From: Escherichia phage altidsur
Sequence record: MN850568.1
Reading direction: 5' to 3' (one strand)
DNA length: 42,197 nucleotides
The position numbers and the translations under genes were made by a program. Below the pieces are notes generated by a model, which was given only the letters and a program-made list of their open reading frames with translations, did not search any database and was not told the origin of the DNA. Below are positions 25,867-42,197 of the stretch, piece by piece. Position 1 is the first letter of the stretch; every line of letters begins with the position of its first letter.

Positions 25867-26990
25867 TGACCAAGTTAACGAATCACCAACTCAAAGAAGA
25901 CATTGCCGAAGGGCTTGGCACCAAAGCCATTGCGGATAAGCACGACATGACCGAGAGTGCCATCCGATACCGGAAGCGCCAGCTTGCCAAGAGCGGCTGG
26001 AGTCCTGAGCACGACATGACGAAGGAAGTACCGGAGCCGTATGCAGTCAAGGGTACGTCCACGCTGTACGATAAGGACGGCAACGTTGTCATGCAGTGGG
26101 TGAAGACTGCGCTCGACCGTGAGCAAGAGCTGGCTATGCTACAGGCAGCAGTTGATGCAATCAGTGAGAGCATCGTGCCGGAGCCGCCGCGCTTGTATGC
26201 AGGTCGCACAGCGCCAGCCGATTTGCTTAACCTGTTCGTCCTGACTGACTACCACCTCGGTATGCTGGCGTGGGCTGAGGAGACTGGCGACGACTGGGAT
26301 ATGAAGATTGCGGAAGACCTGCTGGTCAAGTGGTTCGCCGCCGCCATCGACAGTGCGCCGCCAGCTCAGGTTGCTATCTTCGGACAGCTCGGTGACTTCC
26401 TGCACTGGGATGGGCTGGATGCAGTAACGCCGTCGAGTGGTCATGTGCTGGATGCTGACACGCGATTCCAGAAGTTGGTGCGTGTGGCCATTCGAGCGCA
26501 GCGCCGCATCATTGGTATGCTGCTGGAGAAGTTCCCGCAGGTTCACGTAGTGTGTGCCGAGGGCAACCATGACATGGCCAGCTCTATCTGGATGCGTGAG
26601 CTGCTGCATGTACTGTACGCCGACGAGCCGCGTGTTACTGTTGACCGCAGCCCTGACCCGTACTACTGCTATGAGCATGGTGAGACGGCACTGTTCTTCC
26701 ACCATGGCCACAAGCGTAAGGCAGAACAACTGGAGACTGTACTGGTCGCCAAGTTCCGCGAAGTGTATGGCCGAACCAAACATGCTTATGCACACGTTGG
26801 CCACCTGCATCACAAGAAGGTACTGGAGTCTGGTGTTATGGTTGTCGAGCAGCACCGTACGCTGGCGGCGAAGGATGCCTACGCTTCTCGTGGTGGTTGG
26901 CTGAGCGAGCGCAGCGCGAGCGTGATTACGTACCATACCCGGTACGGCGAGGTTGCACGATTCACGATTAGCCCGGAGATGTTAGAGTGA
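25863..26990 (+). CDS. Calcineurin-like metallophosphoesterase with N-terminal HTH-like region, 375 aa
   Basis: Metallophosphatase motifs in order: LGDFLHWDG, AEGNHD, FFHHGH, VGHLHH; N-terminal ~40 aa helix-turn-helix-like. Confidence 0.65.
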   Translation: MMTKLTNHQLKEDIAEGLGTKAIADKHDMTESAIRYRKRQLAKSGWSPEHDMTKEVPEPYAVKGTSTLYDKDGNVVMQWVKTALDREQELAMLQAAVDAISESIVPEPPRLYAGRTAPADLLNLFVLTDYHLGMLAWAEETGDDWDMKIAEDLLVKWFAAAIDSAPPAQVAIFGQLGDFLHWDGLDAVTPSSGHVLDADTRFQKLVRVAIRAQRRIIGMLLEKFPQVHVVCAEGNHDMASSIWMRELLHVLYADEPRVTVDRSPDPYYCYEHGETALFFHHGHKRKAEQLETVLVAKFREVYGRTKHAYAHVGHLHHKKVLESGVMVVEQHRTLAAKDAYASRGGWLSERSASVITYHTRYGEVARFTISPEMLE

Positions 26991-27211
26991 CACGAACCCT
27001 GTACCAAGAAGATGTGGTACAGCTTAAAGAAGATGGCCTCTCGATTGAGTGGGAGGCCAACACTCAGGTTGAGCTGTACAAAGATGGCACCGTCTGCATT
27101 TCTCAGGACGGTGAGGAAGTCTGGTTGCCTTGGGCGTACGTCCGAGACGTTATCTTTGCTCTTGAGGAAGCACACGATGCACATGAAAGACACCGTAGTA
27201 GTAGACCTTGA
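26987..27211 (+). CDS. Small hypothetical protein, 74 aa (GTG start)
   Basis: GTG overlapping the upstream TGA; overlaps the next gene by ~35 nt; weak. Confidence 0.35.
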   Translation: MTRTLYQEDVVQLKEDGLSIEWEANTQVELYKDGTVCISQDGEEVWLPWAYVRDVIFALEEAHDAHERHRSSRP

Positions 27212-27680
27212 TGGTACGCTGGCCGATGGCCGCTGGCGTTTGCACCTGCTGCCTCCACCGGAGCGTCGGCACCTTGACGAAGCGTGGGCCGAGTTCAACT
27301 TGGCTGGCGCTGACGACCCTGCGTTTCAGGATACGATTGACATTGTGAACGCTCTGGCCCTCACGTATCGCATTGTCATCCTGACTGGACGCGGGGCCGT
27401 GGCCCGTGAAGTAACAGAGCAGTGGCTCGACGAAGCTGGCGTTGTTTACGACAAGCTAATCATGAGAGAGATTGGTGACTGCCGTAAGGACACAGAGATG
27501 AAGCTATCCGCTCTGGAGGATATTGGTATCGAGAACATCGTGTGTGCTTTCGATGACCTGCCGCACATCGTGGACTTCATGCGAAGCCTCGGCATCACAG
27601 TGTATGAAGTGACCCGGTACGAGGACAACCATGAGTACGTCCACGCCAATGCCAAATACGATGGAGACAAAGATGAGTAA
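27177..27680 (+). CDS. HAD-superfamily phosphatase (polynucleotide 3'-phosphatase-like), ~167 aa
   Basis: HAD motif I VVVDLDGTLAD near the N-terminus and a late acidic motif (FDDLPH); internal ATG of track ORF 27012..27680. Confidence 0.6.
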   Translation: MHMKDTVVVDLDGTLADGRWRLHLLPPPERRHLDEAWAEFNLAGADDPAFQDTIDIVNALALTYRIVILTGRGAVAREVTEQWLDEAGVVYDKLIMREIGDCRKDTEMKLSALEDIGIENIVCAFDDLPHIVDFMRSLGITVYEVTRYEDNHEYVHANAKYDGDKDE

Positions 27681-28257
27681 ACGTGGTGACAAGTTCTGTC
27701 TGGATATTAACCGCGACTACCAAAGCCCACGGCTCAACGCTATGCGGGACAACGGCATCATCCTGACGTACGATGAACCCTATGATGTACCTAATGACAG
27801 CAGGGATTATTACACCTACGTTTGGGACGGCAGGACGGAACATCTGGTACTGGAGCCTTATGAGGTACAGCCAGTCCAGACTGCGTTCATTGAGAACGAC
27901 CCATATGACCCGGCCTCTGATGTTGAGGTGGCCGTGGCCATTGGTCAGGGTGTTGGTGGGCCGGGCGGTATGAAGTTCGACGGCGGCAAACCGCGCATGG
28001 CCCTGCTGTTCGACGGTTGCCCGAATGCACTGGAGGCTGTAGCCAGCGTGCTAACCTTCGGTGCTCAGAAGTACGCAGCTCACTCGTGGCAGACCGTACC
28101 GGAAGGTGAGGAACGCTACAAGTCAGCGCTGCTTCGTCACCTGACCGCAGTGGGTAAGGGTGAGGAGACTGACCCGGAATCCAATCTGCACCATCTGGCG
28201 CACGCTGCTTGCAATGCGCTGTTCATTCTGGAACTTGCTTTAAGGAAAACGAAATGA
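27673..28257 (+). CDS. Conserved phage protein resembling dATP/dGTP pyrophosphohydrolase-type nucleotide hydrolase domains, ~194 aa
   Basis: Segment KFDGGKPRMALL...FGAQKYAAHSWQ...RYKSALLRHL...ESNLHHLAHAACNALFILE; family assignment from memory only. ATG overlaps the upstream stop (ATGAGTAA). Confidence 0.5.
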   Translation: MSKRGDKFCLDINRDYQSPRLNAMRDNGIILTYDEPYDVPNDSRDYYTYVWDGRTEHLVLEPYEVQPVQTAFIENDPYDPASDVEVAVAIGQGVGGPGGMKFDGGKPRMALLFDGCPNALEAVASVLTFGAQKYAAHSWQTVPEGEERYKSALLRHLTAVGKGEETDPESNLHHLAHAACNALFILELALRKTK

Positions 28258-28433
28258 GTGCTTTACTTTATGTGATTGCTTTGTTCTGGTTCGTGTACTT
28301 TACACTGGCCACCCTCAGCGCGTGCAAGTCTTATAACTTGACGCACTACCCGACACGGGCTGGCTCTGCTGGTTTCGTTGTGTGGGTACTGTTGGCTGTA
28401 CTGCCAACTTGGTTCATCTGCTATCTGGCGTAG
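28254..28433 (+). CDS. Small two-TM membrane protein (holin-like topology), 59 aa
   Basis: ATGA-coupled internal ATG of track ORF 28209..28433; hydrophobic helices LLYVIALFWFVYFTLATL and FVVWVLLAVLPTWFICYLA. Confidence 0.5.
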   Translation: MSALLYVIALFWFVYFTLATLSACKSYNLTHYPTRAGSAGFVVWVLLAVLPTWFICYLA

Positions 28434-28441
28434 GGGATTGT

Positions 28442-28747
28442 ATGAGTCGTTATCAGAGAGCTGTCGATGACACAGCGGTAGACAAGAATGTGTGCGGTGC
28501 GTGCCATGGGAGTGGCACCTACCGGGGCATGTTGATTGGTGGGCAGGTAGTCCTGATGGATTGCGAAGCCTGCGGCGGTACGGGTACGAATAACAGCACG
28601 CTTCAACACGAGGTGCTGGCAGACTTAGGGCAGCGCAACCAAGCGCAGCCCGGTTATGATAAGCCTACCTATGGCGTTGGTATTGTCGAAGAATTTCAAG
28701 ACGATGCGGCTGAGGTTGAGCGGTTAGCTGGACAAATTAAGGAGTAG
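28442..28747 (+). CDS. Zinc-finger protein (DnaJ-like CxxCxGxG repeats), 101 aa
   Basis: CGACHGSGTY and CEACGGTGT motifs; internal ATG of track ORF 28382..28747 with GGGG RBS. Confidence 0.5.
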   Translation: MSRYQRAVDDTAVDKNVCGACHGSGTYRGMLIGGQVVLMDCEACGGTGTNNSTLQHEVLADLGQRNQAQPGYDKPTYGVGIVEEFQDDAAEVERLAGQIKE

Positions 28748-28749
28748 TT

Positions 28750-31182
28750 GTGGACTTACTTGCTGAGCAGATTCGACTTGAAGAAGAAGCACGAGCCAGA
28801 CACCGCGAGGGCTGGCTGGACAATATCAAAGAAGCCATGGCTAGTGGCCGGGCCGGGTCGGTGCCGTTGCTCCAGCGTATGATGGTAGAGGCGTATCCTC
28901 TTGTCGAAGCTGCGATGCAAGAAACCCTGAACGAAACGACCCGTGGGTACGGTGCGCAGTACCGGACGTACATGCGTGAGATTGGCACCAAGGCGTGTGC
29001 CTCTCTTGCACTGAGCATGGCGGTGTCCGGTGCTGCGTCGGAGCAGGCGGTGCTGAGTCTGCTTAAGAGTATGGGTAAAGCGCTGATGGCTGAGGTGGTG
29101 TATCTCCGGGCGAAGCAGACCGGGCCACAGCAGGCAGCGTACATGGAGCGCGTGAAGCAGGACGTTAAGAAGTCCCGGTCGAAGTCAGCCAACCACGTCT
29201 ACAACAAAGCGCGTGCGTCGGCGGCGAACGTTGGGGTCGAGATTGATGTGCTGCCGCAGCGTGCTCTGATTACCATTGGCAAGCTGATGATGAAATGCGT
29301 GGAGCCAACTGGGTTGGTGGCTACGATTCGCGTCGGCGGCAACCAACGTCAGCGCGGTACGGCACACTTCGCACTGCATGAGGATGTGCTGGCTACGATG
29401 AACGACTGGCTGGACATGCCGCGTGCTGATGGCATGTGCTGCCCACCGTTGATTATCCCACCGAAGCAGATTGCACCGAACGGTCGCAGCGGTATGTGGC
29501 ACTCGGATGGGCAGGCGGCGATGTACCGGGTAATGAGTCGCATGAACCACAAAGGGTATCGTGCATTGAACGTTGACCCGACCCCTGTTATAGAGCCGTG
29601 TATGATGCTCAGCAGCGTTCCGTACCGAATTAACCCAATGGTACTGGAGTTCCTGAGAACGAACCGTACAGGCGTTATGGGGCTGCCTGTGCCGCCTCGT
29701 GAGCCTAAGCTCCCATTCACCATCCCGGCTGGTGTCAGCTTCGCGCAGTACATCAGCAAGTTCCCACCAGAGATGCAGCAGCAGATGGATGCCGAGGCTC
29801 ATGAGTACAAGGTTAAGACTCGCTTGTATTACAATGAGTTGCGTAAGTTCACGTCGCAGATGCTGGCGCTGAATGGTGCAGTCAAAGAGGCAGAGCGCTA
29901 TGCGCATTATGACCGGGTATACCTCCCGACCTACGCTGATACACGGGGCCGAATTTATTATTCTTCGACCCTTAACCCTCAGTCCATCGACGCAGTGCGA
30001 GCGCTGCTCGAACTTGCTGAACCAGTGGCTCTCGGAAGTGAGGGGTTATTCTGGCTCAAGGTACATGTTGCGAATTGCTTCGGCTACGACGCGACAGACT
30101 TCGAAGACCGGGCGGCGTGGACGGACAAGACACTCCCCCGACTACGTGAGGCGTGCCGTCTTCCAGAGGCATTTGATTCGTTCTGGTCAGAGGCCGATAG
30201 CCCTATCAGCGCGTGGGCTGCATCTGTTGAACTCATTCGCGCTATCGACTCAGGAAATCCTGCGGCTTATCCCTGCCGAGTGGTTACACAATGGGACGCT
30301 ACCTGTTCAGGATTACAGCACCTCAGTGCGATGTTACGAGATGAGGTTGGAGGTGCTGCTGTCAATCTTATCGACAGCGTGGGAAGAAAAGCAGACATAT
30401 ATCTCAAGACGGCAGCAGCGGCGATGCAGGCTCTTGAAGAAAGTGAGGCAGCAGCGCCGACGCAAATGGGTACGTGGCTTGTTAGCATCGGCATCGTTCG
30501 GGCTATGGCCAAGAAGCCAGTGATGACCTACGTGTACGGGGCAACCCGGCATGGTATGGTTGATTACTACTGCCTGTATCTGCGTGAGAACCGGGTCAAG
30601 CTGCCGGACGGCAAGAGCCTGCTGGAGTGTGCGCAGTTCATCGCAGAGTTCATGTGGAACGCTATCCCTCGCGTTGTGCCGAAGGCGGCTGAGCTGATGG
30701 CATGGTTGCAGGCTATCGCAGTTGAGGCGGCAGCCAACGGCGAGTACGTGGAAATCATCGCACCGTCAGGGTTGCGGGTGGTTAACCTGTACCAAGCCAG
30801 TAAGGAGACGATGCTCAACAACATCAACCTCATGGGTATCCACAGCATTAAGCTGCGTGAGTATCTGGACAAGCCGGACAGCCGGAAGTGTGCTGCTGCG
30901 ATTGCTCCGAATTTCGTACACGCTATGGATGCCAGCCACATGATGAAGGTGCTGTGGGAGATGTGGAACAACGGGGTGTACATGGTATCCATCCATGACT
31001 CGTTCGGTGTTGCGGCGGCACATGCTGGTCTGCTGCATAAGGTCATTCGTGAAAAGTTCGTACAGATGTATGAGCAACATGACCCAATTCAACAGCTTGC
31101 GGTAAGATACAATGCTGTTGCACCAGAACGGGGTAATCTGGACATCCAGCTTGTGAAACAATCAAGCAAGTTTTTCTGCTAA
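28750..31182 (+). CDS. DNA-directed RNA polymerase, T7-like single-subunit, 810 aa
   Basis: Motif WDATCSGLQHLSAMLRD (compare T7 DGSCSGIQHFSAMLRD) and IHDSFG catalytic motif; GTG start; located directly upstream of the structural module. Confidence 0.9.
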   Translation: MDLLAEQIRLEEEARARHREGWLDNIKEAMASGRAGSVPLLQRMMVEAYPLVEAAMQETLNETTRGYGAQYRTYMREIGTKACASLALSMAVSGAASEQAVLSLLKSMGKALMAEVVYLRAKQTGPQQAAYMERVKQDVKKSRSKSANHVYNKARASAANVGVEIDVLPQRALITIGKLMMKCVEPTGLVATIRVGGNQRQRGTAHFALHEDVLATMNDWLDMPRADGMCCPPLIIPPKQIAPNGRSGMWHSDGQAAMYRVMSRMNHKGYRALNVDPTPVIEPCMMLSSVPYRINPMVLEFLRTNRTGVMGLPVPPREPKLPFTIPAGVSFAQYISKFPPEMQQQMDAEAHEYKVKTRLYYNELRKFTSQMLALNGAVKEAERYAHYDRVYLPTYADTRGRIYYSSTLNPQSIDAVRALLELAEPVALGSEGLFWLKVHVANCFGYDATDFEDRAAWTDKTLPRLREACRLPEAFDSFWSEADSPISAWAASVELIRAIDSGNPAAYPCRVVTQWDATCSGLQHLSAMLRDEVGGAAVNLIDSVGRKADIYLKTAAAAMQALEESEAAAPTQMGTWLVSIGIVRAMAKKPVMTYVYGATRHGMVDYYCLYLRENRVKLPDGKSLLECAQFIAEFMWNAIPRVVPKAAELMAWLQAIAVEAAANGEYVEIIAPSGLRVVNLYQASKETMLNNINLMGIHSIKLREYLDKPDSRKCAAAIAPNFVHAMDASHMMKVLWEMWNNGVYMVSIHDSFGVAAAHAGLLHKVIREKFVQMYEQHDPIQQLAVRYNAVAPERGNLDIQLVKQSSKFFC

Positions 31183-31207
31183 TAAATAGTGATATGTATC
31201 ATTGACT

Positions 31208-31233
31208 TATATGAAAGTGTCTATAGTGATATG
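31208..31233 (+). promoter_or_regulatory. 22-bp phage promoter-like motif ATGAAAGTGTCTATAGTGATAT, flanked by direct repeats of TAGTGATATGTATCA
   Basis: Identical over 22 bp to the reverse complement of 10731-10752; partial copies at 17184-17205 and 31498-31519; lies in the gap between the RNA polymerase gene and the structural genes. Confidence 0.5.
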
Positions 31234-31293
31234 TATCACGCTACCGGTAGCCCCGTCAGTGGCGGGGGTTACTGCCACTAAGAGAGGATTGTA

Positions 31294-31485
31294 ATGGGTA
31301 AAGAATCTCCATTAGAAAGAGTTACCTTCACGAAAGCTCAGTTAGCTCTACTGGAAAAACACTTCGGAACTTGGGCGGCGGTAGGTAAGACTGTAACCCC
31401 TGATACCAACCTGCCACTGATTAACAGAGAAGCTGGTAAGCAGGATGTGCTGGACTTCATCCGTGAACGTGTCATTGGGTTGTAG
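31294..31485 (+). CDS. Small hypothetical protein, 63 aa
   Basis: ORF with AGAGAGGA RBS downstream of the promoter-like motif. Confidence 0.5.
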   Translation: MGKESPLERVTFTKAQLALLEKHFGTWAAVGKTVTPDTNLPLINREAGKQDVLDFIRERVIGL

Positions 31486-31497
31486 GGAGAGTTGTCG

Positions 31498-31519
31498 TTA
31501 TGAAAGTGTCTACTATGGG
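31498..31519 (+). promoter_or_regulatory. Phage promoter-like motif copy (TTATGAAAGTGTCTACTATGGG)
   Basis: First 13 core positions identical to the 31211-31232 motif; overlaps the first ATG of the next ORF. Confidence 0.35.
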
Positions 31520-31919
31520 AAATACATCACACACGACAATGCCACTCGACATTCGCCGTGCTGTGGCCGAGGGCATTCAAGCTGAGCGGCCATGGTCTGA
31601 CTTATCTCCCGATGTGATTGTTGACAGCATGTACGAGGCCACCGCCTCCGGTTGTGTTGACGTTTACATCACTGACGATGACGACAGCCTCATGGCCGTT
31701 GCACACATCGGCAGGTTATTCGATATTCATGTGGGCGAGATGGTGGTCGTTATGGCCTCATACGTCTGGCCCCCGTACAGAAACCGTGGAGTGATGCGTG
31801 CCATCCTCCGTGTACTCAAAGACGTGGCCCGTTCAGAGGGTGTACGTTGGTGCGGTTACTCCCATATGGTGCGGCCTTACGTTCAGGAGTACCGCTTCAT
31901 TGATTTGGAGAAACCGTAA
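31515..31919 (+). CDS. Hypothetical protein, possibly GNAT-like acetyltransferase, ~134 aa
   Basis: Motif YRNRGVMRAILRVL resembles GNAT motif A; start placed at the second ATG because the first (31500) lies inside the promoter-like motif. Confidence 0.45.
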   Translation: MGNTSHTTMPLDIRRAVAEGIQAERPWSDLSPDVIVDSMYEATASGCVDVYITDDDDSLMAVAHIGRLFDIHVGEMVVVMASYVWPPYRNRGVMRAILRVLKDVARSEGVRWCGYSHMVRPYVQEYRFIDLEKP

Positions 31920-32179
31920 TGGGTAGCGTAGGCAAAGTATTCAAGGGCATTGGCTCGGTCTTCGGGCTGGGTAGCCAAAAGCCTCAGTACACTATCAAGA
32001 CTGACCCCGCTCAGATTAAAGCCGAGACGATGCAGGCTAACCTTGCCGCCGACCTCGGTAACGAGAACACCCCAACCATTCAGGCAGGTGGCCAAGTAAG
32101 CTCGGCCTCTGATACGCTGGGTGGTCGCCGCCGTCGCACCGGAACTGGTGTGGCAAGTAACCTCGGCATTGGGAGCTAA
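31919..32179 (+). CDS. Small Gly-rich protein upstream of the portal (possible virion protein), 86 aa
   Basis: TAATG-coupled ORF immediately before the portal gene, in the position of T7 gp6.7/7.3-type small virion proteins. Confidence 0.5.
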   Translation: MGSVGKVFKGIGSVFGLGSQKPQYTIKTDPAQIKAETMQANLAADLGNENTPTIQAGGQVSSASDTLGGRRRRTGTGVASNLGIGS

Positions 32180-32181
32180 GC

Positions 32182-33747
32182 ATGACTCAAGACGCGCAGA
32201 ACGTCAGCTATGAGTCTCTGTGGCAGAAGTACCGGGATAGCAACGTTGTCACCAAAGCGCGGGAGTACAGCCGCTATACACTGGCTAAGCTGGTGAGCGA
32301 GTACGACCGCAGTGACGTGGACGACATGAACCGCCAGCAGATTACTCGTGATTACCAGTCTGTCGGCGCTCTGCTCGTCAACAACCTAGTTGCCAAACTG
32401 GGTGAGTTCCTGTTCCCGGCTTCCGCTCGATTCGTGAAGCTGAAATTAAACAAGGTGTCTGACCAACAGCGGCAGTCTATGTCGCAAGTTAATCAGGCGC
32501 TTATCACTATTGAAAAGGCCATCGTAGACAAAGCCAAAGAGAATGGCGGCTACGCTGACCTGCTCCAAGCAATTGCCCAACAAGCTGTGACCGGAAACGC
32601 CGCGCTGTACCGCGATATGGAAACTGGTTCGTACCGAGTGTACGGATTGGAATCCTTCGTGGTGCAGCGCGACGGTCGTGGCGTTGTGGTGGATGCTATC
32701 GTGAAGGAGCGCATCCAGTGGGATTCTCTGCCCAAGGACTTTCAGAATGAACTGAACTCCAAAGGCTTCCGCTGCGGTGGGAACAAACGCGTATGGCTGT
32801 ACACTCGTGTGCTCCGCGTCCAGAAGGACAGCGGCACGTACGGCTACGAAATCACGCAGCAGATTGGTAACTACCAAGGTTGCGTCTATACCCCCGGTAA
32901 GGATTACTACCCTGAAAAAGTCTGCCCATGGTTATTCCCAGTGTGGTCTTTGAAGTCTGGCGAGCATTACGGTCGCGGGATTGTCGAAGACCACGCTGGG
33001 GATTTCGCACGTCTGTCCATGCTGTCTGAGCATTCGGCTCTGTACATGCAGGAAGCGCTGCGCGTGCTGTGGATGCTCACTGGTTCTGGCGGCAACGCCG
33101 ATGACATTGAGAGCGCAGAGACTGGTCAGGTCATTCCACTCCAGAACGGCACATCGCTGTCCGGCTTGGAGGTCGGGGATTACCAGAAAGTTCAACAGGC
33201 CCGTGACGAAATCAACCAGATTGTGCAGCGATTGGCGCAAGCCTTCATGTACACTGGCGAGTTCCGTGACTCCGAACGTACCACCGCCACCGAAGTGCAG
33301 CAGGTAGCAACCAGCGCCGAACGTGGGCTGGGTGGCCCGTACTCAATGCAGGCTAAGACCCTCCAGATTCCTCTGGCGTACGTCCTGCTCGCGGAGATTG
33401 ACGAGTCCACCGTACCTGACATCGTAGGCAATATCCTGTCGCTTCAAGTTGAAGCTGGTCTGGATGCCCTCGGTCGCAGCATTGAAGCAGAGACGCTGAT
33501 TCGTGCGCTCTCTGACTCGCAGGCAGCAATGGTTGCTGTCCAAAATATTAATGGCGTTGCTAACACCATCGACCCACAGAAAGTCCTTGAGGTTATCTTC
33601 GCATCCAACGGTGTTGCGCTTGACGACTATCGTAAGTCGGCACAAGACTTGGCCCAAGAAGGGCAGGCCATCGACAATGCAGCTCAGGCTGCCGCAGGCG
33701 TTCAGCCGGGCGCAGTCGATGTAGCGCCTAACATCGCACAGATTTAA
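32182..33747 (+). CDS. Portal (head-tail connector) protein, 521 aa
   Basis: Size and position (first large gene of the structural block, followed by scaffold and capsid) match T7 gp8-type portals. Confidence 0.8.
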   Translation: MTQDAQNVSYESLWQKYRDSNVVTKAREYSRYTLAKLVSEYDRSDVDDMNRQQITRDYQSVGALLVNNLVAKLGEFLFPASARFVKLKLNKVSDQQRQSMSQVNQALITIEKAIVDKAKENGGYADLLQAIAQQAVTGNAALYRDMETGSYRVYGLESFVVQRDGRGVVVDAIVKERIQWDSLPKDFQNELNSKGFRCGGNKRVWLYTRVLRVQKDSGTYGYEITQQIGNYQGCVYTPGKDYYPEKVCPWLFPVWSLKSGEHYGRGIVEDHAGDFARLSMLSEHSALYMQEALRVLWMLTGSGGNADDIESAETGQVIPLQNGTSLSGLEVGDYQKVQQARDEINQIVQRLAQAFMYTGEFRDSERTTATEVQQVATSAERGLGGPYSMQAKTLQIPLAYVLLAEIDESTVPDIVGNILSLQVEAGLDALGRSIEAETLIRALSDSQAAMVAVQNINGVANTIDPQKVLEVIFASNGVALDDYRKSAQDLAQEGQAIDNAAQAAAGVQPGAVDVAPNIAQI

Positions 33748-33757
33748 TGGAGAATAC

Positions 33758-34990
33758 ATGTTTGGTGAATCCCAACCTACTGCCGCACCCGCTCCCCAAA
33801 ACGTACCCGCTGGCCCGACCTATGCTCCCTCTGGTCACAGCGGTAATGATTATGGTGGAAGCCCACAGGTGGTACAGAACCCAGCGTTAGGCCGTCTCGG
33901 TACGCCAATCGAGTTACCTCGTGGTGGTGCTACCCCGCAGCCTGCGCAGCCGTTCGGACAGCAGCCGGGCCTGATTCCTTATCAGGAGCAGAATCCGTAT
34001 GCACAGCCCCAACAGGGAAACCCAAGTCCTTACGCACCCGTACCTCAGCAGAACCCGTATGGTGCTCCGCAGCAGACCTCTCCGTTTGCGGCACCACCAA
34101 TTCCGGTTAATGGGTATCAGAATCCGGGCGCAACGCCTCCGGGCCAAGCGGCTCCGGCACAACAGTTCCAACAGCCAGTAGCTCCGCAGCCTTACGCTTT
34201 CGACCCGTATGGTCGTCAGCCGGGCGCACAGCCGCAGGCACAGCAGCCTCAACAGCAGCAGCCGCAGCCATTCCAACAGTTGCAGCAGCAGCCGGGCCAG
34301 CCCCCGCAGCAGTTCCAGAATCCCAACCTCACGGCTGAGAAACTGGCTACTCAGGAAGGTGGCTTGACCTCCGAGCAGGTTGCTCAGATTTTCCCGGACG
34401 ATACCAGTCGCGCCGTATTCCAAGGTATGGACACCATTGCCCGTGGCCAGAACATCGACCTGCTTGCAGCGTTCGGTTCTGCTTACGAGCGTCGTGACCC
34501 GTCGCTGGTGAACGACCGCTATCTGGCTCAGTTCGACCCACAGACTGTATCAATCCTCAAAGGTCAATTCGGCGCACTGGTTGCGGCTGGTCAGCAGCGT
34601 GACGCTGCAATCGAGCAGCAGGTTTACCAGATGGCTGGTGGCGAGGAGCGATGGGGTCTGGCTGTACAGGCATTCAACACCGCCGCCGACAAAGGCACGG
34701 TCGATGCCGTTGTAGCGGCTGTGAACTCCGGCGACCCTAATCAGGTGCGTCTGGCAGTGAACACCATTCTCCAGTTCGCTGGTTCCGCAGGGAATATGAT
34801 TCAGCGTTCTGGTCAAACTTTGACGCCTAATGGTGGCGGTCAAGCACCTCGTGAGGTTATGACCAACGAGGCATTCCGTCAGCATCTTGGCTGGCTTGAG
34901 CAGGCGCATCCTGTTGGTTCCCCGGAATACAACAAGCATTACGCCGCACTGGTAGAGCAGCGCCGTCAGGCTAAAGCTCAAGGTTACTAA
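33758..34990 (+). CDS. Scaffolding protein with a long Pro/Gln-rich low-complexity N-terminal region, 410 aa
   Basis: Position between portal and major capsid; residues ~1-190 are dominated by P/Q/A/G repeats, the C-terminal half is ordinary. Confidence 0.6.
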   Translation: MFGESQPTAAPAPQNVPAGPTYAPSGHSGNDYGGSPQVVQNPALGRLGTPIELPRGGATPQPAQPFGQQPGLIPYQEQNPYAQPQQGNPSPYAPVPQQNPYGAPQQTSPFAAPPIPVNGYQNPGATPPGQAAPAQQFQQPVAPQPYAFDPYGRQPGAQPQAQQPQQQQPQPFQQLQQQPGQPPQQFQNPNLTAEKLATQEGGLTSEQVAQIFPDDTSRAVFQGMDTIARGQNIDLLAAFGSAYERRDPSLVNDRYLAQFDPQTVSILKGQFGALVAAGQQRDAAIEQQVYQMAGGEERWGLAVQAFNTAADKGTVDAVVAAVNSGDPNQVRLAVNTILQFAGSAGNMIQRSGQTLTPNGGGQAPREVMTNEAFRQHLGWLEQAHPVGSPEYNKHYAALVEQRRQAKAQGY

Positions 34991-35010
34991 TTTCTTCGTA
35001 AGGATTTTCC

Positions 35011-36003
35011 ATGGCTGATAACGCTTATACCCCGAACCAGTTCCGTCCACACTGGGGTGGCGCGAACTCTGATAACGACATTCACCTTGAGGTGTATGAC
35101 CGTGATGTTCAAACCCAGTTCATCTACAACTCCATCTTCCGTTCCGGTCTGACCAACTTCAAGTCTGTGGCTAACCAGTCCAACACTTGGCGTGGCGACC
35201 GTCTCGGCTCTGTGACCGTTAAAGGTCGTCGCTCTGGTGAGGCGCTGGACAACCAGCCAGTTCGCTCTGAGAAACTGATTGTCACTGTGGATACCGTGTC
35301 TTACATCCGTATCCCGATTGACTATCAGGACGACTGGACTGCGCCGGACTTCCGCGCTGAGCTGACCCGTAACATGGGTACTGCACAGGCGAAGGCGTTC
35401 GACCAAGCGCACGTCATCCAGCTCCAGAAGTCTGCTGACTTCGTGCCTCCGGCTTCTCTGGCTGGCGCGTTCAACGCAGGTATCAAGGAGCAGGTCACTC
35501 TGACTGGCACCGTGGCATCTGAGGAAGATGATGCGTCTGCGCTGGTACACGGCCACAAGAAAGCTATCGAGGCGTTCATCCGTCGCGATGCCGACCTTGG
35601 CCGACTGGTTACGCTGATTGACCCGGCGTGGTTCAGCATTCTGCTGGAGCACAAGAAACTGATGAACGTTGAGTTCACTGGTGGTCGTGGTGTCAACGAC
35701 TTCGCAATGCGTCGTGTTGCGTACGTCAACGGTATCCGCATCATCGAGAGCAACGCGTTCCCGCAGGCGGCAATCACTGACCACATCCTCGGCCCTGACT
35801 TCAACGTCACCGCCGACGAGATTCAGCGCAAGATGATTATCTTCGACCCGTCTCTGGCTCTGGTCACTGTCGAAGCCCAGCCGCTGTTCAACCGCGTATG
35901 GGATGACGAACGTGAACTGACCAACGTTCTGGATAGCTTCCACATGTACACCGTGGGCCAGCGTCGTCCAGACGTGGTTGCTGTAGTTACCACTGAGACC
36001 TAA
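35011..36003 (+). CDS. Major capsid protein, 330 aa
   Basis: Strong RBS (AAGGATTTTCC-ATG); size and position match T7 gp10-type capsid; followed by a terminator hairpin. Confidence 0.85.
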   Translation: MADNAYTPNQFRPHWGGANSDNDIHLEVYDRDVQTQFIYNSIFRSGLTNFKSVANQSNTWRGDRLGSVTVKGRRSGEALDNQPVRSEKLIVTVDTVSYIRIPIDYQDDWTAPDFRAELTRNMGTAQAKAFDQAHVIQLQKSADFVPPASLAGAFNAGIKEQVTLTGTVASEEDDASALVHGHKKAIEAFIRRDADLGRLVTLIDPAWFSILLEHKKLMNVEFTGGRGVNDFAMRRVAYVNGIRIIESNAFPQAAITDHILGPDFNVTADEIQRKMIIFDPSLALVTVEAQPLFNRVWDDERELTNVLDSFHMYTVGQRRPDVVAVVTTET

Positions 36004-36013
36004 TGGTAAACTC

Positions 36014-36036
36014 GAAGCCCTTCTCTGAGGGGCTTC
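36014..36036 (+). terminator. Stem-loop terminator candidate after the capsid gene (GAAGCCC-loop-GGGCTTC)
   Basis: 7-bp perfect inverted repeat with 9-nt loop 11 nt after the capsid stop, followed by a T-containing stretch; analogous in position to T7 T-phi. Confidence 0.45.
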
Positions 36037-36059
36037 TATGATTATCACTGGGAGGTTTT

Positions 36060-36608
36060 ATGACTCTACTCGAAGCAGTCAACATTGTTCTTCGAGCATT
36101 GTCTGAACACACTGTATCATCCACCGAGATTCGAAACCCGTCCGTTACCCTTGCACTTGACAAGATTGGTATCGCGCAGGAAGAAGTTCTCACCGATGGT
36201 TGGTGGTTCAACAATATTCGAATCACCATCCCCCGCGAAACGGATGGTCGTGTCAAATACCCCGCCGACGCATTGAGCTTCATCCCTGATGGGTTTGAGT
36301 GTATCGTGCGTGGCGGGTATCTTTACAACGCTAATTCCCAAACCTTTGTTTTTACAGAAGATGTTCCGGGATTGGTGACTTACGATTTAGGCTGGGATGA
36401 CCTACCCAGTCCGGTACAACGACTCGTTGCATATCAAGCAGCTATCTCCGCGTACTCGGATGACATGGGTGACAATCCCCCGGCCAGTGTTACTGGTGGT
36501 TATGCCATGGCCCTGCAACAGTGCCAGTCTATCCATACCCGCCAGCGTCGATTCAATGCTCGCCAGCGCAAGAGCTGGTGGCGCTATGAGAGTGCTCGGA
36601 GAGGATAA
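36060..36608 (+). CDS. Tail tubular protein A, 182 aa
   Basis: Size and position after capsid match T7 gp11; GGGAGG RBS. Confidence 0.7.
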   Translation: MTLLEAVNIVLRALSEHTVSSTEIRNPSVTLALDKIGIAQEEVLTDGWWFNNIRITIPRETDGRVKYPADALSFIPDGFECIVRGGYLYNANSQTFVFTEDVPGLVTYDLGWDDLPSPVQRLVAYQAAISAYSDDMGDNPPASVTGGYAMALQQCQSIHTRQRRFNARQRKSWWRYESARRG

Positions 36609-39052
36609 TGCCAGTATACCAAGGCGCTTATAAATCCATCCTCGGCGGCGTGAGCCAGCAGGTCTATACTGACCGCCAGCTATCGCAGGTTGAGGAACAG
36701 GTCAATATGACCTCTGACACCGTGCGTGGCCTGCGTAAACGCCCCGGCACCCGACTGCACCGTACTGTGGATTCCACTAACGCGAACGTCTGGAGCCTTG
36801 GTAACTTCGGCCACCTGCGATTCACTACCACTAACTTAGGCTGGGGCATCACCACGTTCATCGTGAATACGAAGACCGGGTATGTCACAGCCATCGTCGA
36901 GACGGAGACTGTCCAGTTCATGGGCCAGTCCAACTATCTCGTCACGAACAACCCCGACGACATCGTGTTCGCTACCGTAGGCAACACCATGTACGTTGCC
37001 AACTGCTCCAAGCTGCCCGTGCTTCTGGAGAACGAGACGCGTATGAATCCGGGTCGCCGGGGTTACTTCTTTGTGCTGGCAGGCGCATACGGCAAGCAGT
37101 TTACCGTCCGTATCGAGACCAGCGGTGGGGCAGTCTCTGCTACATACACCACCCCTGAATCTGGCGCTACAGGCGCGGCAGCCGCATCTACCCCGGAGCG
37201 CATCATTAGCGAGTTGAAGACTCAGCTCGACGCTGCCATCGGCGGCGCTACCGGGCTGGAGGTTGTGCAGGTGGACGGTGCGTACATGTACCTCCAGACC
37301 ACTGCTGCATACACTGACCTGAACGTTTCCACCAACACTGGCTCCAGCTATGCGATTGCCTCGAACACTCACCGCGTTGACCTGACCACTAAGCTCCCGG
37401 CACGTCTGCCGACTCAGGCTGGTGGCTTCATCATGACCGTGGGCGACGACAGCTTCGCGCAGTATTTCCAGTGGGATTACGCCAACTCGCGCTGGGTGGA
37501 GAAAGGTGCGTGGGGTTCCCCGACCGGGATTAACCCAAGCACAATGCCGCTGGTGTTCAGCACGACTTCGACCACCAACCAGCACACGTTCGCCCAAGGC
37601 TCATGGCCGGGCCGACTGGCTGGCGACGACAAGACCAACTCAATCCCAGCATTCACTGATGCTGATGGTGTGGGTATCACTGGTCTGGCTTCGTTCCAAG
37701 GTCGCCTGATTGTGTTCTCCGGCCCGTACATTACCATGGGTTCCAGCAACAAGGAAGACAGAACCAACTTCTTCCGTACGACTGTGACGCAGGTACTGGA
37801 CGACGACCGCATTGAGTTCACTGCAACCAGCTTCGCCGGGGCATCGTTCCGGTACGGCATCCCGTTCAACTCTGACCTGATTCTGGCCAGCGAGGAACAC
37901 CAAGCCGTTATCCCCGGACGTAACCAAATCCTGACACCGAACAACGCCACCGCTGTGTTGACCTCGACGTACCAGATGGATACGGGTGTAGCGCCGACTA
38001 CTTCTGGCCGCAGCCTGTATTACGCGTACCCGCGCTCGAACAGCTCATTCTCCATCAAAGAGATGCTACCGTCCGGCTACACGGATTTGCAGTACGTGAG
38101 TCAGGATGTGACCGACCACCTGCCGACCTATCTGGAAGGGGCTAACTCGTACATCTCTGCCAGCACCACGAACAACATCGTTGTGTTTGGCTCAACCACT
38201 GAGAAGTCCACGCTCTACGTGAACGAGTACCTGTGGTCAGGTGACGAGAAGGTGCTGTCCTCTTGGCATCGCTGGGAGGTGTACGGTACTGTGCAGGCTG
38301 CGTGGTTCGTCCGTGAAGTGTTGGTGCTTTTGGTTGAGCAGCAGGGCCACATGAACCTGCTCACGCTGTCCATGCGAGATTCCCCTGACCCGACTGACCC
38401 GGCGCGATTCCTCCCGGCCATTGACTACGCCCAGTTGATGACTGTGACGAACCCGGCCACGGACAGCTCGTACATTCAGTTCGCTGCCACTGGCGAGCAG
38501 AAGGCGCTGTGGGACATTATCCAGTACCGCTACCAGACTGAGGGCAACTGGGATTTCATGACGAACGTAGTGCCGTCTGGTAACTACATCGGGGCTGAGG
38601 TCGGGGTTAAGTCCATCGACACCACGAACCGACGCGTGTACCTCCAGCCTTCATATGGCAGCAGCTCACTGTACGTGGGCCTGCGATTCACTGCCCTGTT
38701 CAGCCCTACGCCTCCGCGTGTGTTTAATCAGGACGGTTCGTACATGGACGTGAACAAGATGGTTATCATGCACTACAACTTTACGTTGCGGTACACGAGC
38801 CTGTTCAACATCACGGCCAGCGACCGGGGCGCGTACTCGGCACTGAACATCATCAGCAGCCCTATCCGGTACACCAGTAAAGAGCTGGGTCTGGAGTCTG
38901 CGATGTTGGCCAAGCGTGCGCACTTGAAGGTTCGCATGGGTCTTGAGGTGGAGTCCAGCAGCATGGTCGTGGATTCGTCTACGGCAGGCGACCTGAACAT
39001 TCAGGGGCTTGGCTACTACATCAAGTTCTACAACAAAGTTCGGAGAATTTAA
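36608..39052 (+). CDS. Tail tubular protein B, 814 aa
   Basis: Size and position match T7 gp12; translationally coupled to tail tubular A. Confidence 0.75.
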   Translation: MPVYQGAYKSILGGVSQQVYTDRQLSQVEEQVNMTSDTVRGLRKRPGTRLHRTVDSTNANVWSLGNFGHLRFTTTNLGWGITTFIVNTKTGYVTAIVETETVQFMGQSNYLVTNNPDDIVFATVGNTMYVANCSKLPVLLENETRMNPGRRGYFFVLAGAYGKQFTVRIETSGGAVSATYTTPESGATGAAAASTPERIISELKTQLDAAIGGATGLEVVQVDGAYMYLQTTAAYTDLNVSTNTGSSYAIASNTHRVDLTTKLPARLPTQAGGFIMTVGDDSFAQYFQWDYANSRWVEKGAWGSPTGINPSTMPLVFSTTSTTNQHTFAQGSWPGRLAGDDKTNSIPAFTDADGVGITGLASFQGRLIVFSGPYITMGSSNKEDRTNFFRTTVTQVLDDDRIEFTATSFAGASFRYGIPFNSDLILASEEHQAVIPGRNQILTPNNATAVLTSTYQMDTGVAPTTSGRSLYYAYPRSNSSFSIKEMLPSGYTDLQYVSQDVTDHLPTYLEGANSYISASTTNNIVVFGSTTEKSTLYVNEYLWSGDEKVLSSWHRWEVYGTVQAAWFVREVLVLLVEQQGHMNLLTLSMRDSPDPTDPARFLPAIDYAQLMTVTNPATDSSYIQFAATGEQKALWDIIQYRYQTEGNWDFMTNVVPSGNYIGAEVGVKSIDTTNRRVYLQPSYGSSSLYVGLRFTALFSPTPPRVFNQDGSYMDVNKMVIMHYNFTLRYTSLFNITASDRGAYSALNIISSPIRYTSKELGLESAMLAKRAHLKVRMGLEVESSSMVVDSSTAGDLNIQGLGYYIKFYNKVRRI

Positions 39053-39053
39053 T

Positions 39054-39794
39054 ATGGGTTGGGCAGCTTTTGCTAAAGCTGGTGCCGACGCTACGAACTC
39101 CTTCATCACCACCTATGCTCAAGGACGAGCAGAGCGTGCGCAGATGAAGGCGGTTCAGGCAGAGAACGAACGCCTGAACAAGCAAACGTGGCAGGCAATG
39201 GGCCAGCGCATCAACACCGTGAATCTCCAGCGCGGCCTGCTCCGGCAGCAGACTGGCACCGACCTGTACAACATCAACAAGGAAGCTAACCGGGCATCCG
39301 GCGCGAGCATTAACAATGCCGCCGCTGCCGGGATTGAAGGTGCCTCTGTGGACGAGGCGGTTACGGACATCAGCCGCCAGAATCAGGAAAGCCAAGCGCA
39401 GACCCGATTCAATGAGCAGATTCAGGAGATGAACCTCGACACCAGTATCAACGACATCATCGACACCGCCGTCGCAGCTCAGCGTTATTCGCAGAAGCCA
39501 GCGAGCAACAGCATGATTGTGGGCCGCGCCATTGGCGTGTCTGCCATGCAGTTTGCTTCGAGCCTCGCGCAGACCAGCTTCGACTACATGCCGACTGAGG
39601 GTGCGAAGGGTACGGGTACACAGAGCGGCAGTGCTGGCGCTACAGCGTCAACGTTCGATAACCTCGGCTCCAGTACAGCGAGTTATGGAACAACTAACTG
39701 GATGCAGAAGGCTGGGGAATTTAACCCTGTGCCTGCGCAGTATCAATCAAATCGTTACATGGGCTACGGCTCAGGTTCAATCTTTGGGGGCTAA
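39054..39794 (+). CDS. Internal virion protein A, ~247 aa
   Basis: ATG 2 nt after the upstream stop (track ORF starts earlier at 39009, overlapping the upstream gene); Gln/Ala-rich. Confidence 0.6.
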   Translation: MGWAAFAKAGADATNSFITTYAQGRAERAQMKAVQAENERLNKQTWQAMGQRINTVNLQRGLLRQQTGTDLYNINKEANRASGASINNAAAAGIEGASVDEAVTDISRQNQESQAQTRFNEQIQEMNLDTSINDIIDTAVAAQRYSQKPASNSMIVGRAIGVSAMQFASSLAQTSFDYMPTEGAKGTGTQSGSAGATASTFDNLGSSTASYGTTNWMQKAGEFNPVPAQYQSNRYMGYGSGSIFGG

Positions 39795-39796
39795 TC

Positions 39797-42197
39797 ATGG
39801 CTACTATGCGTGACCAGCGTGGCGCTAACCTTAATGCTGCGCAGCAGGGATTACCAAGTGTGCAGCAGGCGCAGACTCCGTTTAGTCTCGCAGGCCGCGA
39901 TACTCGCATCGACACGTTTCCTACCGAGTCCATTCAACGCGTACTGAACATGGCCAGCGCACTTGCTGGCCGTGTCACTGAGCGTGCGAACGAGGAAGAA
40001 TACCTCAAGGGGGCTAACGCCGCCGCGAGTGGCAAGGCTGTCGAGGATTTGGATTCGAACTGGCTTACCGCTCAGTTCCAGAAAGCTGGTTACAACGACC
40101 AGTACAAACGAATGGAAATGGCGAAGGTCGCCTCAGACATCTCGGCTAACATGCCGCAGTATGCGAAGATGGCACCCGACGAGTTCTTGAAGGTGGTGGA
40201 CGAGAAGACCACTGGCCTGTTCGAGAACACTGATGGTATGACGCTGAACGGGCGTAAGTCACTGCTGGAGAACCAGCTCACGTTCAGCAACACCCTTATC
40301 CGTACGCAGGCTGCCCAGCATGGTAAGTATCTGGTTGAGCAGCGTGCGGCGATGTACAACACGCAGGGTAACACTCTAGTTACTCTGGCGGCTCAGGCCA
40401 AGGCCACTGGCGATGGCGGCGCGTACGCTAACGCTACGGCAGCAACCATGGCATGGGCCAAGTCTATTCTGGCAGACGACAAGCTGCCACTGGAGACTCG
40501 CCGGACGCAGGTGACTTCCATGATGGGGCTGATGCTCCAGCAGGATTTGCGTACCCCGGTCGAGACTGCTGTGAACTCCGGGCTATTCAACGAGCTGCCT
40601 GCCGACGATTTGGCCAAGCTGCAAGGTCAGATTCGTGAATCCAAATCTCGTACTGAGGTTCAGGATAACATGGGTCTGCTGGCGCAGAAGGGTCAACTTG
40701 ATGCGCGTCAGGCAGTATTCGGTGACGTTACGCCGGAACAGTACACGCAGACGCTCCAGCAGATGGTGGACAATAAGCTGATTAGCGCTGGTGGTTTCAG
40801 CTCTGCTATCGAGTCCTTCTACAAGGATTACGCCAAGCAAGCCAAGGCCAGCCAGCTCGGTCAGGCTTACGCCACCGGGAACCAGACGTACATGCTCCAG
40901 CAGGGCGCGAGTGAGCAGGATGGTGCTGACGCATTCATCAAGGCTCGCATGAAGCAACCGGGCGCGACGGCAAGTTCCGTGGCGTTCGACCTGCTGCAAG
41001 TGGGTGCGCAGACTGGCTTCCCTTCTGCGTACAAGTCTGCTGCCAAGTTGATTGAACCATCCCTGTCGAACTTCGGCACCGTGGACGAAATGAACCCGGA
41101 CGCTGCCCGTACCGTAACCGGGCTGATTGACCGCGTAACTGTGGCCGAGAATCAGGGTGACAAGACTGCATGGACTAAGCTCCTGTCAGGTCTGTCAGAA
41201 GAAAACCAAGAGAAGATGGTGTACATGCGCGAGCAGATTAAGGCTGGCCGCACCATCGACCAAGCTGGTCAGGGTTACATCAAGCAGCAGCAGGACTACG
41301 CTGGCTTGACCCCGGCACAGAAATCTCAAATCCTCACGCAGCGTCAATCTGACGTTAACTCTGTGGTGAATGGGCTGGAGGCTCAGGGCTTCCTCTCTCG
41401 CACTTGGCAGGGTCTGGCTGGTCTGTTCTCAGATACTCAGCAGAACCTGTTCCAAGCACGCGTCGCATCTGGTGACATTACTGCCGCGCAGGAAATGTCG
41501 GAGGTGTCTGCCGCGTACCGCGAGGAGCTGCAAGCTGTAGTCCTCAAGAACCCGAACGTGACGAAGGATGGTATGGAAGCACTCGCATCTGCGAAGCTGG
41601 CCAACCGTGTCCTGCGCGTTGGTGAAACCACATTCAGCCCCGGCTCTGTGCTTATCGCACCGAGAGGCCAAACTGTTCAGTCTATGCTCGGCTTGCCTGC
41701 TGACGTAGCCCCCGACCGTATCGGTCGCGCTATCGCCGCACTTGACCAGACCAAGGCACCAGAAGGCTTCGAGTCGTCCTACTCGTTTATGCCAGATGGC
41801 TCTCTGAACGTTCAGTTCTTCAACAAGCAAGGTGACGTTTCCCCGAACTCGGTACGCATTCTGCCGCAGCTCGTGCAGGAACGCATCCGTGAAGACGACC
41901 GTGCAGCAGCCACTGCCAACAACGAAGTGTATGGCGACGGGAAACTCTTTGTTGATAAGACCAGTAACGTGGGTATCCGCGTGAATGGCGTTAATACTGC
42001 TGGGGTAGACGAGCAGCGTATGCTTGTTGCCCGTGGCAAACTGATTGACTTCGAAGGTATCCGCAGCACCACCTATCGCGACAGCACTGGTGTACAGACT
42101 AACGGTGTCGGTATCTCCGACCGTAGCCCGTACTTTGCCCAAGGCCAAGCGTCTGGTATGAAAGGCGGTACTGAGTGGTCGCCGCGAACTATCCACG
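39797..42197 (+). CDS. Internal virion protein B with C-terminal lysozyme-like domain (5' part; runs off the window and appears to continue at 1-296)
   Basis: Uninterrupted + frame from the ATG at 39797 to the window end (800 codons); near the end, FEGIRSTTYRDSTGVQTNGVGIS fits the E-G-x-R...Y-x-D...G...T-x-G-x-G lysozyme motif. phiKMV gp36 is known to carry a C-terminal lysozyme domain. Confidence 0.7.
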   Translation, partial: MATMRDQRGANLNAAQQGLPSVQQAQTPFSLAGRDTRIDTFPTESIQRVLNMASALAGRVTERANEEEYLKGANAAASGKAVEDLDSNWLTAQFQKAGYNDQYKRMEMAKVASDISANMPQYAKMAPDEFLKVVDEKTTGLFENTDGMTLNGRKSLLENQLTFSNTLIRTQAAQHGKYLVEQRAAMYNTQGNTLVTLAAQAKATGDGGAYANATAATMAWAKSILADDKLPLETRRTQVTSMMGLMLQQDLRTPVETAVNSGLFNELPADDLAKLQGQIRESKSRTEVQDNMGLLAQKGQLDARQAVFGDVTPEQYTQTLQQMVDNKLISAGGFSSAIESFYKDYAKQAKASQLGQAYATGNQTYMLQQGASEQDGADAFIKARMKQPGATASSVAFDLLQVGAQTGFPSAYKSAAKLIEPSLSNFGTVDEMNPDAARTVTGLIDRVTVAENQGDKTAWTKLLSGLSEENQEKMVYMREQIKAGRTIDQAGQGYIKQQQDYAGLTPAQKSQILTQRQSDVNSVVNGLEAQGFLSRTWQGLAGLFSDTQQNLFQARVASGDITAAQEMSEVSAAYREELQAVVLKNPNVTKDGMEALASAKLANRVLRVGETTFSPGSVLIAPRGQTVQSMLGLPADVAPDRIGRAIAALDQTKAPEGFESSYSFMPDGSLNVQFFNKQGDVSPNSVRILPQLVQERIREDDRAAATANNEVYGDGKLFVDKTSNVGIRVNGVNTAGVDEQRMLVARGKLIDFEGIRSTTYRDSTGVQTNGVGISDRSPYFAQGQASGMKGGTEWSPRTIH

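Follow-up and report, generated by a model that had tools for sequence, protein, structure and literature searches.

A well described counterpart of the gene analysed here is gp36 of phage phiKMV, a virion protein of 898 amino acids (aa) whose C-terminal domain was shown experimentally to be an active and very thermostable lysozyme (Lavigne 2004; Briers 2006; reviewed in PMC5380687). A second counterpart, gp42 of the phiKMV-like phage Ar-KM, was described in a 2026 cryo-electron microscopy preprint as a T7 gp15-like protein of the periplasmic tunnel, eight copies of which form a stack on the portal until they are ejected; by the prediction given there, its T4-lysozyme-like domain (residues 740–881) would point outward, level with the cell wall (10.64898/2026.05.18.726046). 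Presence in the virion and ejection were shown for the phiKMV and Ar-KM homologues only (10.64898/2026.05.18.726046; PMC5380687), muramidase activity for the phiKMV protein only (PMC5380687), and in T7 the muralytic domain is carried by gp16 instead (10.64898/2026.05.18.726046; background in PMC8954989). Here, the corresponding gene was studied in the record of Escherichia phage altidsur (MN850568.1), a stretch of 42,197 bp with a GC content of 55.72% that was analysed as a whole (hereafter, the window), in which the gene is divided between the last and the first positions. The window is almost certainly a Bonnellvirus genome assembled de novo to unit length and opened arbitrarily at codon 801 of a gp36-like ejection lysozyme gene, its terminal repeats being most likely collapsed and the physical ends of the genome most likely lying at about position 10197.

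The gene across the record junction

An earlier reading of the window from its letters alone (hereafter, the original prediction) had claimed that the forward frame starting at 39797 is still open at 42197 and joins the frame ending at 296 as 899 codons, and this was borne out by translation. From 39797, a total of 800 sense codons plus one leftover base run free of stops to the end of the record (2401 nt), and the first stop in frame 3 of the window start is found at 294–296, the two parts adding up to 2697 nt that encode 898 aa and the stop. The junction splits codon 801 (G/AT, Asp801), which lies within the lysozyme domain. An open frame of 800 codons at 55.7% GC is far beyond chance. In contrast, the join would be in frame by luck with a probability of 1/3, and the weight of the argument therefore falls on homology. 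The relatives annotate the same start for the ejection gene, 2–3 nt past the stop of the upstream gene, and its 3′ end overlaps the next gene by 4 nt (ATGA), as in gp38/gp39 of phage J8-65 (type species).

A search with the joined 898-aa product, which the original prediction had proposed as its check, was run with tblastn on 50,697 phage records. Matches were found in 152 of them, and in 140 a single alignment covered at least 80% of the protein. The identity reached 98% over residues 1–898 in several Escherichia and Enterobacter phages, followed by J8-65 (89%), Lidtsur (80%) and LIMEzero (63%), and values below 60% were obtained for about 120 Pseudomonas phages of the phiKMV type. Moreover, the profile of PHROG 2083 (‘internal virion lysozyme motif’) aligned with joined residues 1–898 over its positions 2–905 out of 908 (E = 1e−211). 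At the DNA level, 119 of the 120 nt centred on the junction were identical in the record of phage aldrigsur without gaps, and the same 120 nt likewise aligned ungapped with glasur, J8-65, Lidtsur and LIMEzero. Furthermore, an exact-sequence look-up found the very same 898-aa protein as a single called gene on five independent ENA/Logan contigs, three of them 42.2–43.2 kb in size, where it had the same neighbour genes. All five contigs cross the window positions 42197/1 at 98–99% identity with zero added bases. The junction is real to the base. The further claim that a lysozyme-domain virion protein spans the record ends was thus supported by the full-length PHROG 2083 match and by the single gene on the contigs. 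In particular, the lysozyme-like motif that had been located just before the junction lies 33–48 residues upstream of it, the domain itself crossing the junction, and the description of phiKMV gp36 as a virion protein with a C-terminal lysozyme agrees with the literature (PMC5380687).

The probable ejection protein and its lysozyme-like domain

The genes around the junction encode, in order, a nozzle protein (PF25675), a T7_gp14 protein (PF24072), the 898-aa protein and a 1036-aa protein of PHROG 342. The 898-aa protein matched the internal virion protein of the same length in the PDB entries 28sd, 9sfd and 9sfn over residues 43–844 (E = 3.6e−34), and phiKMV gp36 (898 aa) was aligned with it over residues 34–842 at about 25% identity. 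Judged by homology, it is a T7 gp15-like and phiKMV gp36-like ejection protein of the periplasmic tunnel. Its lysozyme domain comprises residues 730–898 approximately. A profile of six such C-terminal domains matched T4 lysozyme in the PDB over residues 11–156 with an E-value of about 2e−9, and residues E753, D762 and T768 fell on E11, D20 and T26 of T4 lysozyme in the profile alignment. The catalytic E and D were invariant in the six homologues, phiKMV gp36 among them, and the family PF00959 (Phage_lysozyme) was matched by all six members of the domain family.

Some results weigh against this assignment. The window protein scored 18.8 bits with Pfam Phage_lysozyme as a full sequence and 21.7 bits as the domain alone, and the gathering threshold of 22.3 bits was not reached, a shortfall that appears marginal given the E-value of the family profile with T4 lysozyme. 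The AlphaFold model of the domain had a predicted local distance difference test (pLDDT) value of 73, falling below 50 in the beta-sheet region. With this model, essentially all top Foldseek neighbours were T4 lysozyme or T4 gp5, at template modelling (TM) scores of 0.5–0.62 but with E-values of at least 0.28, non-significant because the beta region of the model is poor. The lysozyme assignment relies on the sequence-profile match and not on the fold search. These same points (the Pfam score slightly under the threshold and the low-confidence beta-sheet region), together with insertions in the domain with respect to phiKMV gp36 at only 26% identity, would also suit a degenerate lysozyme fold lacking catalysis, whose sole role would be structural or that of a peptidoglycan-binding module in the channel, the more so as catalysis by the Bonnellvirus domain is a prediction from sequence. 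Such a loss of activity is nevertheless improbable, considering that E, D and T align with the catalytic triad of T4 lysozyme, that E and D are kept by all six homologues and that lysozyme activity resides in the C-terminal domain of phiKMV gp36 (PMC5380687).

With an active domain, as preferred here, the 898-aa protein would form a stack on the portal within the capsid and leave by way of the tail when the phage infects. Together with its gp14-like and gp16-like neighbours, it would build a channel across the periplasm, and the T4-lysozyme-type domain (E753, D762, T768) would cut the peptidoglycan locally so that the channel reaches the inner membrane. The window protein most likely works like phiKMV gp36 and Ar-KM gp42, the homologues from which we infer both its enzymatic activity and its location in the virion.

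Genome unit, record layout and predicted physical ends

The nearest record was that of Escherichia phage aldrigsur (MN850592, Bonnellvirus), with which 41,896 of the 42,197 bases were aligned in circular order, in blocks 97.9–98.7% identical (Table 1). The published identity between altidsur and aldrigsur is 97.1% (PMC8402661). A single non-collinear spot was observed, a swapped early small-gene cassette of about 300 bp at window positions 15193–15680. Moreover, all the sequence between the two repeats of J8-65 mapped round the window circle, J8-65 positions 30554 and 30557 corresponding to window positions 42197 and 3, respectively. Altidsur (MN850568) is one of nine sister records, and these genomes were obtained from Nextera libraries by de novo assembly with CLC or SPAdes, without terminus determination (Olsen et al. 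2020, PMC7552041). The sister records are opened at scattered, arbitrary positions, as a consequence of such assembly, and neither an assembler overlap nor a terminal repeat was found when sought within the window itself.

The aldrigsur record is cut in the same ejection gene, 459 bp upstream at codon 647, and its gene joined circularly gives 898 aa that are 99.9% identical to the window protein. A special meaning of this coincidence was considered and dropped, as a pair of cuts within 459 bp is by estimate not unexpected among nine scattered records. A separate observation concerns the glasur record (MN850583), whose position 1 corresponds to window position 10730, so that it opens exactly at its own copy of a 23-nt inverted repeat and stops 2 nt short of that copy. 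The glasur contig was probably broken by this repeat in the assembly graph, a further sign that the record starts in this group arose by accident of assembly. Phages whose ends are short direct repeats replicate through concatemers, and when such a genome is shotgun sequenced, the two copies of the repeat collapse, the assembly closes on itself and the contig is opened at an arbitrary point. The split gene is a matter of record layout with no new biology in it, the feature being ordinary and its gene family well characterised and already known.

Concerning the physical ends, the J8-65 record begins and closes with the same 259 bp, an exact repeat that bears the annotation repeat_region, and the terminal repeat of phiKMV measures 414 bp. 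When the non-coding stretch from the endolysin gene to the S-adenosylmethionine (SAM) lyase gene was aligned for five genomes, the J8-65 repeat started at window position 10197 and ended at about 10461, and its left boundary (the 11-mer CCTCCC/TCGAC) was identical in all five genomes. In addition, TerL is of the T7 type (PF22530), being 93.5% identical to that of J8-65 and 42.7% to that of phiKMV. The virion DNA most likely starts at about 10197 and has a predicted repeat of about 265 bp (10197 to about 10461) at both ends, which would give a length of about 42.46 kb. It is very probably not permuted, only the record being so. What counts against this placement is that the repeat has its right boundary in low-complexity, T/G-rich and poorly alignable sequence, that we infer the collapse of the repeat and the termini by homology and not from reads, and that the method by which the termini were determined is not described in the J8-65 paper; nor is it in the Kc261 paper. 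The independent contigs read through the terminal region with a single copy. Contig ends were tried as evidence of the termini and rejected, because the contigs cross this region as expected for a collapsed repeat and their ends are uninformative, and the exact-sequence look-up of the endolysin gave no match.

In the case of headful packaging, the virion DNA would be circularly permuted and terminally redundant, with no fixed ends and any opening valid, as might be suggested by a window without its own terminal repeat and by related GenBank records that start at many positions. However, these differing starts stem from assemblies that were deposited with their termini undetermined, and the exact repeats at both ends of J8-65 (259 bp) and the repeat of phiKMV (414 bp), the T7-type TerL so close to that of J8-65 and the left boundary conserved as an 11-mer in five genomes make headful packaging very unlikely. 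Finally, there is hardly any probability that the window departs from exactly one unit of the genome (through bases lost or duplicated at the junction, or as a fragment of a longer molecule) and that the in-frame join is fortuitous, since against the 1/3 luck of the join and the genome-length metagenomic relatives of 42,240–43,201 bp that exceed the window stand a junction that aligns to the base and without gaps in aldrigsur, glasur, J8-65, Lidtsur, LIMEzero and the five contigs, a joined product that at 898 aa has the length of its homologues, phiKMV gp36 among them, and a surplus length of the relatives that is due to indels and HNH-endonuclease insertions elsewhere.

Taking the window as one genome unit with fixed ends, the original prediction of a whole genome stood in that the window is one complete unit, collinear with aldrigsur and J8-65, but had to be corrected in that one repeat copy only is present and the record is about 265 bp short. 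Similarly, the circular permutation it proposed applies to the record and probably not to the virion DNA, considering the fixed ends with direct repeats of the relatives, and its placement of the physical ends inside 10112–10985 is supported by homology, the predicted repeat lying within that interval. The value of these results is practical, for annotation, rather than conceptual, and no biological question is opened or changed by them. When a record is opened inside a gene, that gene is lost in automatic annotation, as exemplified by aldrigsur (1–1942 and 41625–42379), where only a C-terminal fragment of 234 aa is annotated and the N-terminal 647 aa have no annotation. In the same record, an ORF (open reading frame) of 129 aa that is probably spurious was called on the opposite strand at 740–1129. 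Gene counts, pangenome clusters and surveys of ejection proteins or lysins that use such records will be slightly wrong, and the record falls short of the predicted virion DNA by one terminal repeat (about 265 bp). The biological layout would be regained by opening it at about 10197 and supplying the second copy of the repeat.

Further observations were made around the predicted repeat. The non-coding stretch 10230–10720 is G/T-rich on the forward strand (AT skew of −0.28 in the 10–11 kb bin) and contains short degenerate repeats (GGTGCTG, CTGTCCT and ACTGTCT) over and past the predicted terminal repeat; among the relatives, its sequence is poorly conserved and its character is conserved. We take it to recall the short-repeat arrays that flank the terminal repeat of T7. 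Moreover, directly to the right of the predicted repeat, a block at 10470–10488 (GGGTATCTGTCTCTTTTCG) is kept in all five genomes amid an unalignable stretch, and its ATCTGTC followed by a T-run presumably resembles ATCTGTT, the class II pause signal of T7 RNA polymerase at the T7 concatemer junction.

Gene order, control elements and related phages

All the assigned genes lie on the forward strand and a single-subunit RNA polymerase is present (Table 1). The terminase genes span 5785–7850 and are followed by lysis genes up to 10111. phiKMV presents the same order, with the RNA polymerase by the structural genes and the lysis genes after the terminase. Genera are delimited by genome-wide nucleotide similarity and collinearity, at about 70% according to the virus taxonomy committee ICTV. 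The window was collinear with aldrigsur and 80–88% identical to J8-65 over 33.7 kb, all top matches belonged to Bonnellvirus, and by this comparison the phage is a Bonnellvirus of the Autographiviridae. The protein identities to phiKMV ranged from 24 to 43% and the nucleotide search results contained no DNA-level match to phiKMV; by its sequence, the phage is therefore not close to phiKMV and not a Phikmvvirus, and the relatives are classified in Bonnellvirus, outside Krylovirinae. Thus, the label phiKMV-like given by the original prediction is justified for the architecture (position of the RNA polymerase, gp35/36/37-type ejection genes and lysis after the terminase), but only in the old broad sense. 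The gene order that it had noted was found at both positions, except that three small ORFs separate the RNA polymerase gene from the portal gene, which had been said to follow directly.

Table 1. Coordinates of the features in the altidsur window, with the evidence for each
Feature	Window position	Strand	Basis or correspondence
Ejection gene (gp36-like, T7 gp15-like), 5′ part: codons 1–800 and first base of codon 801	39797..42197	+	open frame; PHROG 2083
Same ejection gene, 3′ part: last 2 bases of codon 801, codons 802–898, stop 294–296	1..296	+	
T4-lysozyme-like (GH24-type) domain, first part, aa ~730–800; rest in 1–293	41984..42197	+	6-domain profile, PF00959
Putative catalytic motif E753-x8-D762-x5-T768	42053..42100	+	aligned to T4 lysozyme E11/D20/T26
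Upstream ejection protein (T7 gp14-like, phiKMV gp35-like)	39054..39794	+	PHROG 4295 ‘internal virion protein’; PF24072 on identical 246-aa gene of contigs
Downstream ejection protein (T7 gp16-like, phiKMV gp37-like), 1036 aa	293..3403	+	PHROG 342, E = 6e−168; 91.5% identical to J8-65 gp39
Predicted direct terminal repeat, one copy in window; left physical end 10197, right boundary ~±20 bp	10197..10461	.	homology to J8-65 259-bp repeat
Non-coding terminal/early control region, from last gene (endolysin, stop 10111) to first gene (SAM lyase, ATG 11688)	10112..11687	.	
Large terminase subunit, T7 type	6090..7850	+	PHROGs 17672/38; PF22530
Lysis cluster after terminase	8530..10111	+	PHROGs 1804, 315; PF05838 Glyco_hydro_108
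Lysis cluster: 64-aa ORF, holin candidate		+	by position only
Lysis cluster: Rz-like spanin	8735..9223	+	
Lysis cluster: 127-aa ORF		+	
Lysis cluster: endolysin	9575..10111	+	
Single-subunit RNA polymerase, end of replication module	28750..31182	+	PHROG 414, E = 8e−213
Portal, three small ORFs past RNA polymerase gene	32182..33747	+	PHROG 449; PF12236
Block aligned to aldrigsur	1..15193		aldrigsur 41920–26747
Block aligned to aldrigsur	15680..41738		aldrigsur 26056–1
Block aligned to aldrigsur	41739..42197		aldrigsur 42379–41921

A perfect 23-nt inverted repeat was found at 10729–10751 (reverse strand) and 31210–31232 (forward strand), its copies being 20.5 kb apart and the latter lying 28 nt past the stop of the RNA polymerase gene. 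Its 19-nt core ATGAAAGTGTCTATAGTGA, with the full form (T)ATGAAAGTGTCTATAGTGA(TAT), occurs at 10732–10750 (reverse), at 17186–17204 (forward, with 3 mismatches) and at 31211 (forward), the chance expectation being 0, and a weaker copy of the core is present at 31500–31518 (forward), where the next-but-one ORF after the RNA polymerase has its start codon. The forward copies are thus placed before the replication module, just past the RNA polymerase gene and at the next-but-one ORF. The inverted left-end copy appears once in each of the six genomes compared (the window and five relatives), about 270–530 bp inside the predicted terminal repeat. Each of the five relatives has both this copy and the one past the RNA polymerase gene; four show the complete four-site pattern, and Lidtsur has only these two copies at the threshold used. 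The motif reads GTGACTATAG at all sites of glasur, ATGAAAGTAACTGT... in J8-65 and ATGAAGGCAAGCACTAAGGA in LIMEzero, the last being close to the ‘putative phage specific promoter’ elements annotated in that record. It therefore co-varies between phages and stays matched within each genome. Moreover, no large protein was less conserved between the window and J8-65 than the RNA polymerase (76% vs. 89–94% for the structural proteins), which fits co-evolution of polymerase and promoter. On these grounds, the 19–23-nt motif is the best candidate for the promoter of the phage RNA polymerase. A more tentative and rather doubtful idea is that the inverted copy is an active leftward promoter, transcribing across the terminal repeat or concatemer junction, which might aid the priming of replication or the processing of concatemers. 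T7 RNA polymerase is needed for the maturation of T7 concatemers.

In the early control region, three TTGACA-N17-TGTAAT sites of the same geometry, each preceded by TG, are located at 10985–11013, 11122–11150 and 11202–11230, and a weaker site of this kind at 10878–10907. The three sites are conserved in the relatives and stand where phiKMV and LIMEzero annotate host-type early promoters. A scan of 10000–11800 with sigma-70 and terminator consensus sequences reported nothing, the sites having been missed because position 2 of their −10 hexamer is G, and they are candidate promoters by eye and by conservation only. Furthermore, the first gene has an untranslated leader of about 470 nt (11213–11687) that is more conserved than its flanks, about 70–80% identical overall and with long identical blocks even in Lidtsur. 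Possible readings are a structured leader, a site of processing or a small ORF. The Rfam (gathering threshold) and tRNA scans of the whole window, leader included, gave no matches. Three intergenic elements (13107–13145, 13869–13907 and 14484–14522) were also observed just 5′ of the start codons of early ORFs. Each has a stem of 9–11 bp, whose sequences differ among the elements with two-sided changes that keep the pairing, followed by a conserved small hairpin (GGCA-AUCA/AUUC-UGCC) and then by CCAAC...GAGG. These elements may be sites of RNA processing or of translation control, and we would liken them to the RNase III sites between the early genes of T7.

Among the remaining genes, the tailspike (3403–5775) is of the colanic-acid depolymerase type (PHROG 6117; PF27800 WcaM), as in J8-65, in which colanidase activity was shown. 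A 98%-identical metagenomic relative (ERZ27276042 k141_3322; 43,185 bp) has two HNH-endonuclease genes (16881–17279 and 19234–19635) that are absent from the window; their insertion points lie next to the helicase gene and ahead of the genes for the nucleotidyltransferase and the DNA polymerase.

Compared with the known systems, the closest case was aldrigsur, which is collinear with the window and cut in the same gene, differing in the cassette at 15193–15680 and in the opening point. J8-65 gp38 is likewise 898 aa long and 89% identical, with the same neighbours and the same 4-nt overlap; however, the J8-65 record starts at the physical end and holds both repeat copies, in contrast to the single copy of the window, its RNA polymerase is only 76% identical and its promoter-like motif is different. 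phiKMV gp36 and Ar-KM gp42, the group to which the PDB entries 28sd, 9sfd and 9sfn belong, also have 898 aa, occupy the middle of a three-gene ejection operon and end in a T4-lysozyme-like domain, but they are only about 25% identical and belong to phages of the subfamily Krylovirinae that infect Pseudomonas. Moreover, phiKMV gp36 has a residue other than Thr at the T26 position, unlike T768 of the window, and the Bonnellvirus domain presents two short insertions in the N-terminal lobe with respect to it. No direct sequence match of the window protein to T7 gp15 was obtained. The T7 proteins gp14, gp15 and gp16 form the same three-gene ejection module with the same job (a trans-envelope channel and local cleavage of peptidoglycan), but their muralytic domain is a lytic transglycosylase at the N-terminus of gp16, while that of the window is a predicted lysozyme of the T4 type fused to the C-terminus of the gp15-like protein. 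With T4 lysozyme itself (GH24, PF00959), the profile match covers the whole fold and the equivalents of E11, D20 and T26 are present, although T4 lysozyme is a free endolysin and the window version, with an identity of about 15–18%, forms one domain within a large virion protein.

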